Shown: positions 1 through 6,668, counted from the stretch's first letter. The stretch is DNA of 25,550 nucleotides from Gammaproteobacteria bacterium (GCA_043740595.1 JAYUBZ010000134.1:1-25550); one strand, 5' to 3'. Notes: generated by a model not told the origin, from the letters alone. Numbers and translations: made by a program.

Positions 1-687
1 CGCGATCTCTACGAAAGCATCCGCCTGGCGCTGCACGACAAGGTGCGCAGCGAAATCCAGAAGAAGGGCCTCGCCCGCAGCCAGATCGTGATCCTGGACG
101 CGCTGCTGAAGCTGCGACAAGTCTGTTGCGATCCGCGCCTGTTGAAACTCGATAGCGCGAAGAAGGTGAAGCGCTCCGCCAAGCTAGAACTACTTATGGA
201 AATGCTGCCGGCACTGCTGGAGGAAGGCCGGCGCGTGCTGTTGTTTTCACAATTCACCAGCATGCTGGCGCTGATCGAGGCGGAACTGAAAGAACGCCAC
301 CTCGACTACGTGCTGCTCACCGGCGACACCCGCGACCGCGCCACCCCCATCGATCGTTTCCAAGCCGGCGAGGTGCCGCTGTTTCTCATCAGCCTCAAGG
401 CCGGCGGCATCGGCTTGAACCTCACGGCCGCCGATACCGTGATCCACTACGACCCGTGGTGGAACCCGGCGGTCGAGCGCCAAGCCACGGACCGCGCGCA
501 CCGCATCGGCCAGGACAAAACGGTGTTCGTGTACAAACTCATCACCGCCGGCAGCGTGGAGGAAAAGATCGGCCAGTTGCAGGCGCGCAAACAGGCGCTG
601 GCGGATGGGGTGTACGGCAAGGCCGGCGCCGAGGGACCGGCGTTTACCGCGGAAGATCTGGAGGCGCTGTTTGCAGCAGCGGAGTGA
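1..687 (+). CDS. SNF2/RAD54-family (DEAD/DEAH-like) helicase, C-terminal part; 5' end lies outside the window
   Basis: Frame is open from base 1 ([20 protein letters not shown]...). SNF2 HelicC motifs: [69 protein letters not shown] at 685-687. Confidence 0.92.
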
Positions 688-696
688 TGGGGCCAC

Positions 697-879
697 TTAT
701 CTGAACCTGATGCCCGATGGTCTACACGCGTATTTTATTGCTGTCGACATACCGTCCCAGGTTCTTCCGGCGAAAATACGCCCATAGTCCCTTTTTGGCT
801 GTCTCTTGTCGTCCGCGCCCCACCTGCTCCATTGCCTGAAGAAGAACGTTACACCGCGTTGCTCGTATTGTGAGATTTT
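697..879 (-). pseudogene. Degraded 3' remnant of a DUF5131 (phage Gp37/Gp68-like, three-Cys radical-SAM-like) gene
   Basis: Start-less minus-strand frame reads KISQYEQRGVTFFFRQWSRWGADDKRQPKRDYGRIFAGRTWDGMS...*. This resembles the DUF5131 C-terminal pattern as I recall it (GVxFFFKQWGGWG...GRxLxGRTWDxMP). The N-terminal Cys motif region is absent. Confidence 0.65.
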
Positions 880-884
880 GTAAC

Positions 885-1487
885 CTATTGGTAGCGGGCC
901 GCTAACTCATCTATGCGCCTGCGCGCGCTGGCCAAACTTGGTGAACGTATTGCGGCTCGTTCAGCACTCCAATCTTCGCGCACAAATTGCCCAAGCATTG
1001 AGTTGTAACCGATTCCTTGGGCGGCTATTGCCCCAGGCGCCTTGATCAACTCCTCGCGAATCGCGCGCGGGGCTTTTTTTGCAAGTTCAAGCAGTGTTTG
1101 CTTGGGATCGCCAAGGGTATCCGGCTCAATAGGAATTTTCTTGGATCTGATTTTTAACAAGTTGGCGAGCGCCTCGGCATCCGCCATCAGCCAGGACTCA
1201 ACCTCTCGCACGGCAACCCGAAATAACATATCTTGTGGAAGCTTGCCACCACCCTTCCATGTCGAAATCAATAGAGGAGCGCAGGCCACACGATCAAGAT
1301 CGGTAATCAGCAGCACAGGCAATGAATAGGCAACCCGCGTGAGTTCCGGTAGCTTCTTTTTCAAATTACCGGCGCCTTTCCCGGGTATTTTTGTATCAAC
1401 ACATAGCACACCCCCGGTTTCGAGAATCAGGCGTTCGGCCACAGCCTCAGTCAGGGCGTCCTCGGTCGCGATAACCATGCTCTTCAT
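885..1487 (-). CDS. DUF4276-type TOPRIM-like protein (putative nuclease effector), 200 aa
   Basis: N-terminal strand with acidic residue (VIATEDALTE), DxD motif (LLITDLDR) and family-type REVESWLMAD motif. Its ATG directly abuts the TGA of the upstream ATPase. Confidence 0.75.
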   Translation of the reverse strand: MKSMVIATEDALTEAVAERLILETGGVLCVDTKIPGKGAGNLKKKLPELTRVAYSLPVLLITDLDRVACAPLLISTWKGGGKLPQDMLFRVAVREVESWLMADAEALANLLKIRSKKIPIEPDTLGDPKQTLLELAKKAPRAIREELIKAPGAIAAQGIGYNSMLGQFVREDWSAERAAIRSPSLASARRRIDELAARYQ

Positions 1488-2642
1488 TCACCACAACCCC
1501 AATTGCTCAACGCCCGCGGGTCGTGTTTTTGGCAGCACCACCTCGGCTACTGACAGTCCGGCCTCCAACGCTTTGGTTTCAGTTTCGCTAATCGGCCGGA
1601 CGCGCGACCCCTCTCGGTCAGCCTCCAGAACCACCACCCCCCGTCCGTCTATGCCTGGATTGCTCAACATTACATCGCTATGAGTACTGATAATGACTTG
1701 GCGGCGATGTTTGGCTTGGCGTAGTGCGCGATCGATCAATAGCGGAATCTGCTCGACCACCGCCTGGTGCAGTGAAAGCTCAGGTTCTTCAAGCAACAGT
1801 AGGGAATCGCCATCCAATAGTGACCACAGCAAACCAATCAAACGCAGCGTTCCATCCGAAAAATGCTCCTCACGCTGCCATGCGCCCTGTGGCCGATGAT
1901 GTTCATACAAGGCCTCCAAATGCGGTCGGCCCGTCGCTTCGTCAGGATGGAAACGCAACTCCTTGAACTGGGGCACGGCTGCGGCAAGCGCCTTGGCGAT
2001 CTTCCGCAACCGTGCTTCGCGCGTATTTTTTGAGCACTTGGCGATTCGCTCCAGAAAACCCTGCCCGAAGGGGTCATCCTCAAGACGCTGGCCCCCGATC
2101 TTGTCTCCGTATTTAAGTAGCTGCGGTACCAGATGCAGGTAGGTTATATTACTGAAAAATTCCGCAATATCTCTAAACTTTACGTTGGTCTGAATCTGCT
2201 CCAGATACGTTTGCGTAAGCAACTGGGTGTCTTTTTTATCTTGGTCGTTCGGACGACTGAACAATCGGCGTCCAGCGTGCCAAACTTCCTCGGTTGAGAC
2301 AAGCAACCGCTGCGCACCTTTGCCCTCCGGTTTAAACCCAAGTATGTACTTCCATGTCGGCTCGACTGGCTCCGCTTTCTCAGCCAAATGAACCTCGATG
2401 CGAACTTCTGTATCCCGCCGCGCATGCAAACAACGCAGTTTGGATATGCCCCCTCGGTCATCCACCGCTTTCTGGAGCCCCCCGCCGTTCGGCTTACTGA
2501 CGTCACGCAGCAAGCGGAACACGTCCAGCAAGTTCGACTTGCCAGATGCATTCGGGCCAATCACATAAGTTCTGGCAGCCAGTGGCACAGCCGCCTCACG
2601 AAAGTTGCGCCAGTTTTTCAGATGCACATGGGTGGCCAGCAT
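1488..2642 (-). CDS. ABC-type ATPase (AAA_21/AAA_15-like, SMC/RecF/OLD-related), 384 aa
   Basis: Walker A GPNASGKSN, signature-like FSDGTLR, Walker B/D-loop LLLLEEPELSLH, H-loop ISTHS. SD GGAG (2651-2654) lies 8 nt upstream of the ATG. Confidence 0.9.
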   Translation of the reverse strand: MLATHVHLKNWRNFREAAVPLAARTYVIGPNASGKSNLLDVFRLLRDVSKPNGGGLQKAVDDRGGISKLRCLHARRDTEVRIEVHLAEKAEPVEPTWKYILGFKPEGKGAQRLLVSTEEVWHAGRRLFSRPNDQDKKDTQLLTQTYLEQIQTNVKFRDIAEFFSNITYLHLVPQLLKYGDKIGGQRLEDDPFGQGFLERIAKCSKNTREARLRKIAKALAAAVPQFKELRFHPDEATGRPHLEALYEHHRPQGAWQREEHFSDGTLRLIGLLWSLLDGDSLLLLEEPELSLHQAVVEQIPLLIDRALRQAKHRRQVIISTHSDVMLSNPGIDGRGVVVLEADREGSRVRPISETETKALEAGLSVAEVVLPKTRPAGVEQLGLW

Positions 2643-2689
2643 TACTCGATCTCCAATATCTTCAGCGACTCAATCCTGTGACCATCCAT
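2642..2689 (-). pseudogene. 15-codon mini-ORF MDGHRIESLKILEIE; probable 3' remnant of a type III-like site-specific DNA methyltransferase (Mod) gene
   Basis: Its TAA overlaps the ATPase ATG (TAATG). The peptide resembles the recalled C-terminus (I)VDDRGIESLK(I/V)xxx of large N6/N4 DNA methylases. It is in frame with, and 9 nt after, the AbrB stop. Confidence 0.55.
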
Positions 2690-2698
2690 AACGCTCGA

Positions 2699-2923
2699 TT
2701 AGCCGCGGGTCAGGACCAAGATCTCGTCAGTGCTCATGGACCGGGTGGCTTTGTCGCGCAGGTGCGCGATCAGGCGTCTGCGGCGTATAGGCGATTTACC
2801 GGTTTTTTGCAGCACCACCACGCCGTGACGCACGGCGAATTCCACCTCAGTGTCTGGAAACAGGCCGGCCTGCTCACAAACTTCCGCTGGAACAGTGATC
2901 CGGCCCTTGCGGGTGATGCGCAT
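2699..2923 (-). CDS. AbrB/MazE/SpoVT-family DNA-binding antitoxin-like protein (VapB-type), 74 aa, with no cognate toxin downstream
   Basis: MRITRKGRITVPAEVCEQAGLFPDTEVEF...STDEILVLTRG matches the AbrB/VapB N-terminal pattern. Start reassigned to the ATG at 2923 because a GAGG SD precedes it; the ORF track start at 2974 is over-extended. Confidence 0.8.
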   Translation of the reverse strand: MRITRKGRITVPAEVCEQAGLFPDTEVEFAVRHGVVVLQKTGKSPIRRRRLIAHLRDKATRSMSTDEILVLTRG

Positions 2924-2947
2924 GGCGTGTCCTCGTGGATTTTTTCG

Positions 2948-2976
2948 ATAGTAAGGCCTGCTCATCCCGGACACAA
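2948..2976 (-). promoter_or_regulatory. Putative sigma70 promoter for the AbrB-ATPase-DUF4276 unit
   Basis: Minus strand TTGTGT (2976-2971), 17 nt spacer, TACTAT (2953-2948), 25 nt upstream of the AbrB ATG. Confidence 0.55.
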
Positions 2977-3009
2977 GCGACGACCAATATCAAACCTTAT
3001 GCACGCCGG

Positions 3010-4596
3010 CTAAGCCTGCTCGCGCGTCGCGTTAAAGGTGATCTCCGGCCAGCGCTCCATGGTCAGCTGCAGGTTCACCCGTGACGGCGCGAGATAGGCC
3101 AGCTCACCGGCACCGTCCCGCGCGAGGTTGTCGCGCAGTTTTTTCTCGAAATCGGCCAGCATTTTCTCGTCGTGACACACGATCCAGCGTGCCGTTTTCA
3201 CCTGCACCGGTTCGAAGACCGCGTCCACGCCGTATTCGTTCTGCAGACGGCTCGTCACCACGTCGAACTGCAGGGTACCCACCGCACCGAGTATCAGTTC
3301 GTTGGAATTGAGCGGGCGGAACAATTGGGTCGCGCCTTCTTCCGTCAATTGCTCCAGGCCTTTTTGCAGCGCCTTCATCTTCATCGGGTTCTTGATCTGG
3401 GTGCGGCGGAAGATTTCCGGGGCAAAATTGGGAATGCCGCTGAACTTGAGTGCTTCCTTTTGAGTAAAGGTATCACCGATGCGCATAGTGCCGTGGTTGT
3501 GCAGGCCCAGGATATCGCCGGCGTAGGCCTCTTCCACAGCGACACGTTCCTGTGCCATGAAGGTAATGGCGTTGGCAACGGTGACCTCGCGGCCGAGGCG
3601 CACGTGGTAGAGCTTCATGCCCGGCGTGTATTTACCCGAGCAAAGTCGTATGAAGGCAATGCGGTCACGGTGATTGGGGTCCATGTTTGCCTGGATCTTA
3701 AAGACGAAGCCGCTGAGGGCCTCTTCCTCCGCCCGCACCAGGCGCCCCCCACCGTCCCGAGGTTGCGGTCCCGGGGCAACCTCCACAAAGCTGTCGAGTA
3801 ACTCCTGCACACCGAAATTATTCACGGCGGAGCCAAAAAACACGGGCGTCTGTTTACCGGCGAGATAGGCCGCCAGGTCGAAGGCATGGCTGGCGCCACG
3901 CACTAACTCCACTTCCCCGCGGAACTCCTGGGCCTGATCCCCCAGCACCTCGTCCAGGCGCGGGTTGTCGAGGCCTACGATCACTTCGCCCACATTGATC
4001 TTGCCACCGTGGGTCGGCGAGTACAGATGTACGGACTCGGTGTGCAGGTGATAGATGCCCTTGAAGCGCTTGCCCATGCCGATGGGCCAGGTCACCGGCG
4101 CGCATTGGATGTTCAACACCTTTTCCACTTCGTCCAACACCTCCATGGGATCGCGCCCCTCGCGGTCCATCTTGTTGATGAAGGTGGTGATGGGGGTGGT
4201 GCGCAGCCGGCAGACTTCCATGAGCTTGATGGTACGGTCCTCTACACCCTTGGCGATATCGATCACCATGAGGGCCGAGTCCACGGCGGTGAGGGTACGA
4301 TAGGTGTCTTCGGAAAAATCTTCGTGACCCGGGGTGTCGAGCAGGTTGACGATGCGGTCTTTGTAAGGAAACTGCATGACCGATGAGGTGACAGAAATGC
4401 CGCGCTGCTTTTCCATTTCCATCCAGTCGGACGTGGCATGGCGTGCCGCCTTACGTCCTTTGACGCTGCCGGCGAGCTGAATCGCGCCGCCAAACAGCAG
4501 GAGCTTTTCGGTTAACGTGGTTTTCCCTGCATCCGGGTGGGAAATGATCGCAAAGGTCCGGCGACGGGCAACCTCACGCGTGATCTCAACTGACAT
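3010..4596 (-). CDS. prfC: Peptide chain release factor 3
   Basis: [56 protein letters not shown]; 528 aa, typical RF3 length. Confidence 0.98.
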
Positions 4597-4698
4597 GGCT
4601 TGAACCTGGCGCGGCCTAAAAACCGGGGAGAATAGCCTGATTCCCTGTGCCGTGCCACTGTGAATTTCTGGTCAACTGCTCCTGCGGGCGCCATCGGG

Positions 4699-4726
4699 TA
4701 TACTGTGTTCAACAAAAATTTTGTTG
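4699..4726 (+). promoter_or_regulatory. Putative -10 element plus palindromic operator upstream of the MBL-fold gene
   Basis: TATACT at 4699-4704, followed by the inverted repeat CAACAAAA-A-TTTTGTTG (4710-4726) over the expected transcription start. No clear -35. Confidence 0.45.
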
Positions 4727-4745
4727 CCTCGGGTCGGAGATCGCC

Positions 4746-5699
4746 ATGGGTTATTTTTCACGCTGGATGGTAGTCGCGGTAAGTATTGCACTGGTGTCTT
4801 GTTCCAAGTCCGAAGGCCCGCCCATTGCCGGGGATTATCCGCTAAAGCAGCTTACCGACCGGGTTTACATTGTAACTGGCCCAAACGAGGAGCCGAACAA
4901 GAAAAACCGGGGCTTCATGAACAACCCGGCCTTTGTGCTCACCAGCAAGGGTGTAGTGGTCATTGATCCCGGCTCCAGCCTGCAGGTTGGGCGTATGCTG
5001 TTGGAGAAAATCGCCAAAACGACGCCGTCACCGGTCATCGCTGTCTTCAATACCCATATCCACGGGGACCACTGGCTGGGCAACCAGGCGATTCACGATG
5101 CCTACCCCAATGCTGTGATTTATGCCCATCCGAATATGATCGCCAAGGCTGAAGCAGAGGGTGAGACCTGGCTCAAAACCATGCTCACCCTGACAACGGG
5201 CGCCACCATGGGCACCCGGCTTGTGCTTCCCAGTAGCGCCCTCGAGAACAACGATATGCTGCGTCTCGGTGACCGCCATTTTCGAATGTACCACAACGGC
5301 AAGGCCCATACCGATGGTGATCTGATGGTGGAAGTGGTGGAGGAAAAGCTCATGTTCCTTGGGGATATTGTCATGGCTCAGCGCGTAGCGCGCCTGGATG
5401 ACGGCGACTTCAAGGGCAACATCGCCGCCATCGACATGGCACTGAAAACCAAGGCAGTACTTTTTGTGCCCGGTCATGGCCAGAGTGGTGGACGCGAAGT
5501 CCCGTTGGCCTATCGGGCATTTCTTTCAACCTTGTATGGCTCGGTGAAGAAGTATTATGCCCGTGGCTTGAGCGATTACGACATGAAGGACATGGTCGGC
5601 AAAGACCTGGCGGCTTACCATCAGTGGGCCCTGTTCGATGCCAACCTCGGCCGTCTAGTCAGTCTGGCCTATCTGCAGGTGGAGGCTGAGTCTTTCTGA
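4746..5699 (+). CDS. MBL-fold metallo-hydrolase, probable lipoprotein (SoxH-like by resemblance), 317 aa
   Basis: HxHxDH motif (NTHIHGDHW), GKAHT, GDIV, PGHG. N-terminal signal with lipobox LVSC. GGAGA SD 5 nt before the ATG at 4746; the ORF track start at 4647 is over-extended. Confidence 0.85.
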   Translation: MGYFSRWMVVAVSIALVSCSKSEGPPIAGDYPLKQLTDRVYIVTGPNEEPNKKNRGFMNNPAFVLTSKGVVVIDPGSSLQVGRMLLEKIAKTTPSPVIAVFNTHIHGDHWLGNQAIHDAYPNAVIYAHPNMIAKAEAEGETWLKTMLTLTTGATMGTRLVLPSSALENNDMLRLGDRHFRMYHNGKAHTDGDLMVEVVEEKLMFLGDIVMAQRVARLDDGDFKGNIAAIDMALKTKAVLFVPGHGQSGGREVPLAYRAFLSTLYGSVKKYYARGLSDYDMKDMVGKDLAAYHQWALFDANLGRLVSLAYLQVEAESF

Positions 5700-5711
5700 C
5701 CGCCGTCACTT

Positions 5712-6668
5712 ATGCTCAAACTCTATCCTGAAATCAAAACGAATCGCGTCGACACCCTTTCCGTCGGTAACGGACACCAGCTTTATGTCGAGGAATCCGG
5801 AAACCCCCGGGGAGTCCCTGTGCTGTTCGTACACGGCGGTCCCGGGGCGGGCTGTGACGAAAAACACCGGCGCTTTTTTGACCCGACACACTATCGCATA
5901 ATCCTATTCGATCAGCGTGGCGCGGGGCGTTCGCGACCCCATGCCTCCCTGGACCACAACACCACCCAGGATCTGGTGGCAGACATGGAAGCCCTACGTC
6001 AGTTTTTCGACATCGATCGTTGGGTGCTTTTCGGCGGCTCCTGGGGATCGACCCTGAGCCTGGTCTACGCCGAGACCTATCCGGAGCGCGTGCTTGGATT
6101 GATCGTGCGCGGTATTTTTCTCATGCGGCCTCAGGAGGTCCGCTGGTTCTATCAGGAGGGTGCGAACTATGTGTATCCGGATTATTGGCAGGACTTTGTC
6201 ACCCCCATCCCGGAAAACGAACGCGACGACCTGGTGCATGCCCACTACCGCCACCTCACGGGCGATGACGAAATTGCGCGCATGGCATCCGCCAAGGCCT
6301 GGTCCGTATGGGAGGGGCGCACCGCTACCCTGACACCGAATCACGCGGTCATCGATTTTTTCAGTAACCCGCACCTGGCCATGAGCCTGGCGCGCATCGA
6401 GGCGCATTACTGCGTCAACCAGGCCTTTCTCGCGGAAAACCAACTGCTGCGTGATGCATACCGCCTCGCCACCCTACCCGGCTATATTATCCAGGGGCGT
6501 TACGATATGTGTTGCCCCATGGCAAGTGCCTGGGATCTGCATCTTGCCTGGCCGCAGGCACAACTGGAGATCATCCCGGACGCCGGACACTCGGTGAGTG
6601 AACCTGGCATTACCGATGCGCTGGTGCGCGCCACGATCAGTCTGCACAAACAGCTAGCGCTGGGTTGA
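5712..6668 (+). CDS. pip: Proline iminopeptidase (alpha/beta hydrolase)
   Basis: HGGPG oxyanion motif, FDQRGAGRS, nucleophile GGSWG, IQGRYD, DAGHS; 318 aa. Confidence 0.95.
   Translation: MLKLYPEIKTNRVDTLSVGNGHQLYVEESGNPRGVPVLFVHGGPGAGCDEKHRRFFDPTHYRIILFDQRGAGRSRPHASLDHNTTQDLVADMEALRQFFDIDRWVLFGGSWGSTLSLVYAETYPERVLGLIVRGIFLMRPQEVRWFYQEGANYVYPDYWQDFVTPIPENERDDLVHAHYRHLTGDDEIARMASAKAWSVWEGRTATLTPNHAVIDFFSNPHLAMSLARIEAHYCVNQAFLAENQLLRDAYRLATLPGYIIQGRYDMCCPMASAWDLHLAWPQAQLEIIPDAGHSVSEPGITDALVRATISLHKQLALG

Follow-up and report, generated by a model that had tools for sequence, protein, structure and literature searches.

A 48-nt stretch (positions 2689..2642, minus strand) directly in front of the HEC-01A-type ABC ATPase gene in the window, by which we mean the whole 25,550-nt segment of gammaproteobacterial DNA analyzed here (GCA_043740595.1 JAYUBZ010000134.1:1-25550), is, with a probability that we put at roughly 0.9, a nonfunctional leftover of the 3′ end of a Mod gene encoding ~950 to 1130 aa, and today does no more than provide the ATPase gene with a 5′ leader and ribosome-binding region. 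It shows that the ATPase-nuclease pair, although it seems to stand on its own, derives from a cassette that was nested in the operon of a type III-like restriction system, i.e., that a candidate anti-phage pair once resided inside a restriction-modification (RM) operon and has outlived it. No PF01555 match was found in the 75.7%-complete genome, and the stretch, which has no catalytic N6_N4_Mtase domain, is a stub and not a functional PF01555 DNA methyltransferase gene. Taken as a single locus, this is a modest, well-documented, and fairly ordinary molecular fossil (a pseudogene stub before a known candidate defense pair) that involves no new mechanism. What the locus adds is the documented type III-like host, the cophylogeny of the ATPase with its restriction neighbors, and the difference in cassette between congeners at the same site.

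The Mod stub upstream of the ATPase gene

The gap between the AbrB-type gene, hereafter vapB, and the ATPase gene (Table 1) reads as the initial annotation had described it, its 56-bp length, its reading, the TAA/ATG overlap, and the Shine-Dalgarno (SD) sequence of the ATPase all being reproduced exactly from the sequence. Read on the minus strand in the frame set by the AbrB stop, the gap gives SSV-MDGHRIESLKILEIE*. The part of this frame with an ATG start comprises 15 codons (2689..2645) and is closed by a TAA at 2644..2642, the last A of which also belongs to the ATPase ATG at 2642..2640 (TAATG). The relic, which begins 9 nt after the vapB stop, is made up of ~13 Mod-derived codons (MDGHRIESLKILE) plus two codons that once belonged to the spacer between Mod and ATPase and through which the frame now runs on to the TAA; the GGAG of the ATPase sits in codons matching the terminal L-E pair of the Mod gene. 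The junction is no product of misassembly, since contigs from several sequencing runs bridge the gap without a single difference and an independent Logan contig, L111, also has it.

Table 1. Positions of the genes, relics, and signals around the Mod stub
Feature	Position	Strand	Basis or remark
SNF2-type helicase gene, convergent 3′ end	1..687	plus	PADLOC, NCBIfam
Relic, last 45 codons of a DUF5131 gene	736..870	minus	tblastn and blastn with the congener's DUF5131
HEC-01B-type DUF4276/TOPRIM-like partner, 200 aa, intact	885..1487	minus	PADLOC PDLC04194; Pfam DUF4276 weak
HEC-01A-type ABC ATPase, 384 aa, intact	1488..2642	minus	Pfam AAA_21 (7.5e-35), AAA_15; PADLOC PDLC04180
Relic, very probably of the 3′ end of a type III-like Mod (PF01555) gene	2642..2689	minus	Tail-profile matches and codon alignment with L118, L019
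GGAG Shine-Dalgarno of the ATPase	2654..2651	minus	Sequence; 8 nt before the ATPase ATG
Gap, AbrB-type gene to ATPase gene	2698..2643	minus	56 nt
AbrB-type gene stop TAA	2701..2699	minus	Sequence
Orphan AbrB/MazE-fold VapB-type antitoxin gene	2699..2974	minus	Pfam MazE_antitoxin (5.4e-6)
prfC (release factor 3)	3010..4596	minus	Pfam GTP_EFTU, RF3_C; conserved flank common to the congener

The stub aligns codon for codon with the intact Mod tails of two relatives, L118 and L019, and its first 33 nt are identical to these at 27 of 33 positions. Both relatives read GTG GAT GAT CGC GGG at the compared codons, and the four single-base differences named in the initial annotation (GGT/GAT, CAC/CGC, AGG/GGG, ATG/GTG) are thus real. 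The tail motif is degraded and still recognizable, with IESLK, one D, and the L-E codons kept; compared codon by codon, the stub departs from the two intact tails by single-base changes, a 6-nt deletion, and the loss of the original TGA, so that the former spacer is read through to the TAA. One of these changes is recent and in the predicted direction: L111, whose ATPase is 98% identical and whose junctions agree with those of the window, keeps the ancestral CGC where the window has CAC.

A protein tail profile built from 89 members of the Mod family and run against the six-frame translation of the genome (3.63 M residues) ranked the stub first, at 11.2 bits and a genome-wide E value of 0.73. 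With a DNA tail profile built from seven intact tails, 2688..2643 (minus strand) likewise ranked first in the whole 1.92-Mb genome (E = 0.021). By our own arithmetic, the probability of such a match by chance in one 56-nt gap, with place, strand, and register fixed beforehand, is ~1e-5; as a control, the reverse complements of 80 homologous upstream regions scored at most 3.1 bits versus 9.3 for the window. Single-sequence tblastn of the whole Mod against window positions 1 to 6000 gave a 16-codon match (E = 3.6 to 6.5) that is not significant alone and no further Mod remnant. That an ordinary intergenic spacer merely came to resemble a Mod C terminus might be argued from the 6 to 8 of 16 residues, no more, that match any single Mod tail and from BLAST E values above 1. 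Chance likeness is, however, extremely improbable given that the stub is the top genome-wide match for both profiles, that its position, strand, and register are exactly those of the intact loci, that this Mod type is the one predicted by the ATPase phylogeny, and that graded Mod relics occur at other loci and an unmistakable one of 73 codons at the same chromosomal site in a congener (all described below).

Intact Mod-ATPase loci and stubs at other loci

The C-terminal Mod motif that the initial annotation had named, AVKIVDDRGIESLK(V/I)xxLx, is real: it stands at the very end of all 120 PF01555 Mod family members listed, these being the listed matches to the C-terminal third of the L015 Mod (~610 to 1510 aa, mostly near 1000). 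We took 80 genome loci encoding relatives of the ATPase and read the sequence upstream. At L011, L012, L015, L019, and L062, a gene for 968 to 1113 aa (in L012, 971 aa of a gene cut by the contig start) lies on the same strand 8 to 26 nt before the ATPase gene, carries PF01555, and ends in (I/V/L)AVKIVD(D/N)RGIESLK(V/I)xxLx; the ATPases are 79% (L015), 72 to 73% (L011, L012, and L019), and 68% (L062) identical to that of the window. Closer still is L118, from a metagenome scan, with an 84% identical ATPase and an intact 952-aa Mod whose gene stops 4 nt before the ATPase ATG, bringing the range of Mod-ATPase distances across intact loci to 4 to 26 nt. A TTGGAG in L118 lies 7 nt before the ATPase ATG, inside the last two codons of the intact Mod. 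L112 (82% ATPase identity) has a Mod tail, its Mod gene being cut by the contig start, followed by the ATPase, the partner, and the N terminus of a Res-like protein. Close homologs of the ATPase are therefore preceded by Mod, and the central claim of the earlier reading, that the ATPase-TOPRIM pair once lay directly downstream of a Mod gene, is supported by both motif and adjacency: methyltransferase C termini do match the peptide and the nearest ATPase genes do follow methyltransferase genes, in each respect the reverse of what had been set down in advance as contradicting it.

The TOPRIM-like partner comes after the ATPase in the intact loci, and in L011 and L019 a ResIII helicase gene (~935 to 940 aa; ResIII E of ~1e-8 and a short stretch of PADLOC REase_III) lies downstream of the pair. 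The best PADLOC match of the L011 Mod is MTase_III (3e-161, among the best 25 of 33 matches). Hma was rejected as a former host, no Hma model appearing for the L011 Mod (again among the best 25 of 33 PADLOC matches) or for its Res-like gene. A PF01555 Mod gene and then an SF2-helicase Res gene in one operon are found in L011, L019, L105, L106, and L107. Since L106 and L107 have this core without a cassette, L105 has it with another ATPase cassette, and L011 and L019 have the pair before ResIII, the HEC-01 pair in the ATPase lineage of the window is normally an optional cassette nested between Mod and the ResIII helicase. The window itself holds no Mod gene, and no Res match above 28 bits was found in the genome (75.7% complete). 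These intact relatives resemble type III RM systems of the EcoP15I kind in having a PF01555 Mod followed by a ~940-aa ResIII gene, and differ from them in a Mod ~1.5 times the classical length and in the weakness of the Res match; in the window, nothing of such a system survives apart from the Mod stub.

Two further observations concern these loci. In L118, the region where Res is expected (L118:4896-7665) reads as three overlapping or abutting frames (416, 219, and 334+ aa), and the gene may be broken. Retention of the Mod tail at the DNA level as a recombination site was considered and rejected, as its synonymous sites vary freely among intact loci.

In a tree of 81 ATPases, that of the window falls inside a 24-row clade (SH-aLRT 98), with L008 and L009 as the nearest rows, and this clade holds every locus with the long Mod type, whether intact or as a stub. 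The ATPases that follow a classical Mod of ~650 to 700 aa (tail ...NVRSL) or HsdS form supported clades of their own. Three ATPase clades hence track three restriction neighbors, the long Mod, the classical Mod, and HsdS, and each of the three has intact and stub states.

Mod stubs before such pairs are graded in length, from ~7 to ~100 codons. Those supported by profile or BLAST are L129 (~13 codons), L031 (~16), L017 (~22), L014 (~25), L022, and L013 and L119 (>50 codons); five others, L038 (~7 codons), L008, L009, L088, and L092, were recognized by eye below the profile threshold and are suggestive. In-frame stops or frameshifts are present in the stubs of L022, L013, and L017.

Stubs of the classical Mod also lie directly before HEC-01A, in L037, L040, L048/L049, L021, and L158/L160/L161, as do stubs of HsdS in L026, L052, L036, L063, L024, and others. 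The stub phenomenon is not limited to the lineage of the window and recurs in three restriction-gene contexts. A variant is seen in L014:1463-1852, a 129-aa frame in which the last ~25 residues are a perfect Mod tail and the remainder is unrelated; this is a Mod tail fused to other sequence directly before the ATPase.

The ATPase-partner pair and its expression

The ATPase matches the PADLOC HEC-01A profile PDLC04180 at 5.4e-153 (residues 1 to 382 on profile positions 1 to 379 of 382) and the partner the HEC-01B profile PDLC04194 at 7.1e-56 (residues 4 to 198), the two genes abutting at 1488/1487. The Pfam DUF4276 match of the partner is weak and below the cutoff, and the assignment of a TOPRIM fold to it follows Payne et al. 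(10.1101/2024.01.29.577857). In HEC-01 (Hma-embedded candidate 01), an ABC ATPase is paired with a TOPRIM-like protein whose metal site resembles that of OLD; the pair was discovered inside Hma systems and conferred no phage protection in the one published assay; embedded genes share the orientation of the host system in 96.7% of cases (10.1101/2024.01.29.577857). The window pair has the same makeup, an ABC ATPase and a small TOPRIM-like protein with full-length matches to both profiles. Whereas HEC-01 as published is nested in larger defense operons in the same orientation, the window pair is orphaned, its host reduced to a 48-nt Mod stub, and whereas the published host is Hma, that of the window lineage is a two-gene, type III-like Mod+ResIII system.

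The closest studied design is PARIS, which shares the two-gene arrangement of ABC ATPase and TOPRIM protein. PARIS consists of the ABC ATPase AriA and the DUF4435 TOPRIM nuclease AriB and, by sensing the anti-restriction protein Ocr, backs up restriction (PMC11464382). It differs from the window pair in that the partner of the latter is DUF4276-like and AriB is DUF4435. In PADLOC, the window ATPase scores far higher for HEC-01A (5e-153) than for AriA (3.6e-32, a generic AAA_21-type profile). The partner has no AriB/DUF4435 match in PADLOC or Pfam, and its PADLOC matches are HEC-01 models only (12 HEC-01B and 1 HEC-01A).

Modules of the PrrC/RloC type in type I RM operons offer a further parallel, in that an ABC-type ATPase-bearing effector is nested in a restriction operon and that hsdS genes precede members of other clades of the window ATPase family. 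PrrC, a single protein with an anticodon nuclease domain kept in check by EcoprrI, contrasts with the two-gene pair of the window. To regard the pair as a PrrC- or PARIS-like guard of a restriction system is a reasonable analogy. If PARIS, OLD, and PrrC are taken as models in the same way, the pair would combine an ATP-driven sensor with a metal-dependent nuclease.

These loci extend "guilt by embedding" (Payne et al., 10.1101/2024.01.29.577857) to a further host system. They also suggest that the restriction partner an orphan HEC-01 pair once had can be identified from its upstream stub. With HEC-01 so far inactive in assays, such an assignment may guide the conditions under which it is tested (presence of the cognate RM system, anti-restriction triggers).

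As to expression, no promoter-like site was found in 600-3200 on either strand, and terminator-like sites in the same interval were absent from the minus strand, the three on the plus strand matching the number in shuffled sequences. As the gap and its surroundings contain neither a promoter-like site nor a minus-strand terminator-like site, the pair probably shares a transcript with vapB, initiated at vapB or prfC. The gap holds no stable RNA structure (RNA fold z = 0.33); a regulatory RNA or a separate promoter within it was discarded, with no sign of either in the promoter/terminator scan or the RNA fold. The runs that hold the locus are DNA metagenomes only. When Mod is lost, only deletions that spare its last codons would leave the pair expressible, because in L118 these codons hold the GGAG of the ATPase; the graded series of Mod stubs before such pairs could be accounted for in this way.

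A different view of the 15-codon frame is that it now works as a mini-ORF, with ribosomes coming from vapB restarting at its ATG, translating the 15 codons, and restarting again at TAATG, and with the frame under selection for this coupling, all of which would be compatible with an origin as a relic. It has an in-frame ATG, no internal stops, and the TAATG overlap, and there are parallels elsewhere: in L009 and L010, too, a short frame with an ATG start ends at or close to the beginning of the ATPase gene, and L008 and L009 end in TGATG. We nevertheless consider a functional mini-ORF improbable. Its ATG is not preceded by an SD sequence and comes from an ancestral GTG valine codon, the ATPase has its own GGAG, and the pattern of change (four of the five codons of the otherwise invariant VDDRG altered, and a nonsynonymous variant in L111) looks like neutral drift. 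Given in-frame stops or frameshifts in the stubs of L022, L013, and L017 and changes of neutral appearance in the window, true translational coupling through the 15-codon frame seems unlikely.

The chromosomal site and the history of the stub

No toxin gene lies directly after the VapB-type antitoxin gene in the window; the Mod stub is there instead. In the relatives L096 to L098, homologs of vapB (50 to 56% identity) are directly followed by an ORF of ~135 aa that we read as PIN/VapC-like. On the other side of the pair, 14 nt after the HEC-01B stop, begins the DUF5131 relic, which matches residues 205 to 249 of the 249-aa DUF5131 protein of a congener at 64% identity by tblastn (E = 1.2e-18) and, as DNA, at 79% over 133 nt by blastn (E = 7e-22).

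That congener, G003, has the same prfC-vapB order (contig C663; L094, L104), which is followed by a frameshifted Mod relic of 73 codons (E of ~8e-18) ending in ...VAVKIVDDRGIESLKIIALD*, then by TcmP (TIGR04474, 5e-27), and then by the intact 249-aa DUF5131 gene. The two congeners thus differ, at one chromosomal site, in the cassette that follows a Mod tail of this kind. In another congener, G004, vapB is cut by the contig end, and nothing further of the locus was found. No homolog of the ATPase above 30 to 33% identity was found in 60 relatives (four congeners and 56 others). None of the five TcmP homologs found in 401 genomes of the class is preceded by the tail of the long Mod, which gives no support for the Mod-tcmP junction of G003 as a common native arrangement.

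The block formed by the Mod tip, the ATPase gene, and the partner gene would occupy a decayed island that follows prfC-vapB. It is bordered by a Mod tip at one end and a DUF5131 tip at the other, and in G003 both belong to one array, Mod relic-tcmP-DUF5131, which makes it likely that the block replaced tcmP and most of DUF5131; on balance we favor this as the most plausible course of events, with at least the 3′ half of the stub brought in by the block. The 3′ end of the stub (..LK-I-LEIE, with its stop overlapping the ATG) matches L008/L009 (..LK-F-LEIK, TGATG) at 22 of 26 nt and does not match the G003 tail. In L008/L009 and L088, the pair lies in unrelated chromosomal contexts, and homology ends at the stop codon of the partner gene.

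Replacement has to be weighed against decay purely in situ, i.e., an array Mod-ATPase-partner(-tcmP-DUF5131)-Res resident after prfC-vapBC in the ancestor of the genus that was eroded by deletions only, without import of a stub. Mod relics do lie behind the same prfC-vapB flank in both congeners, the window and G003 resemble each other over the 9 nt that follow the vapB stop, and the left junction of the window results if a G003-like sequence loses 268 nt between two TGTGG repeats. This course nonetheless takes more events, including the loss by G003 of exactly the ATPase pair with a clean tail-SD-ATG junction to tcmP kept; the last codons of the stub and its stop/start overlap are those of the L008/L009 lineage (22/26 nt) and not of G003; and neither the four congeners nor the 56 other relatives yielded the ATPase. 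We therefore regard decay in situ as possible and the less probable of the two. By either route, whether replacement or decay, the stub descends from a Mod gene lying directly upstream of the ATPase. The proposal in the initial annotation that only the tip bearing the ribosome-binding site survived a deletion fits in its first part the GGAG inside the last two Mod codons of L118; a single, simple in situ deletion, its second part, is improbable.

A more general and rather doubtful proposal is that the end of the Mod gene, with the ribosome-binding site of the next gene, marks the left boundary of a slot for cassettes in type III-like operons, where defense cassettes are swapped together with a few Mod codons. 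If so, the window and its congener would record such a swap (HEC-01 pair versus tcmP-DUF5131) at one site, even after the death of Mod. Were the slot general, stubs before orphan pairs would be fossils showing both which restriction system the pair served and how embedding happens.

Two minor observations concern the flanks and the tcmP cassette. The SNF2-type gene at the window edge, inside which the contig starts, gives a strong match to the PADLOC DpdE profile (6e-101); in NCBIfam, SCO1167-family and pilus-regulating Snf2 helicases are the best matches, all below the cutoff for this fragment, and DpdE is weak (2.6e-5). At L115 (contig C59 of G188), ~100 nt before a TcmP homolog, one frame reads ...TTIPNVRSL..., which, compared with the classical Mod tail ...GIANVRSL, may be another Mod stub before a tcmP cassette.
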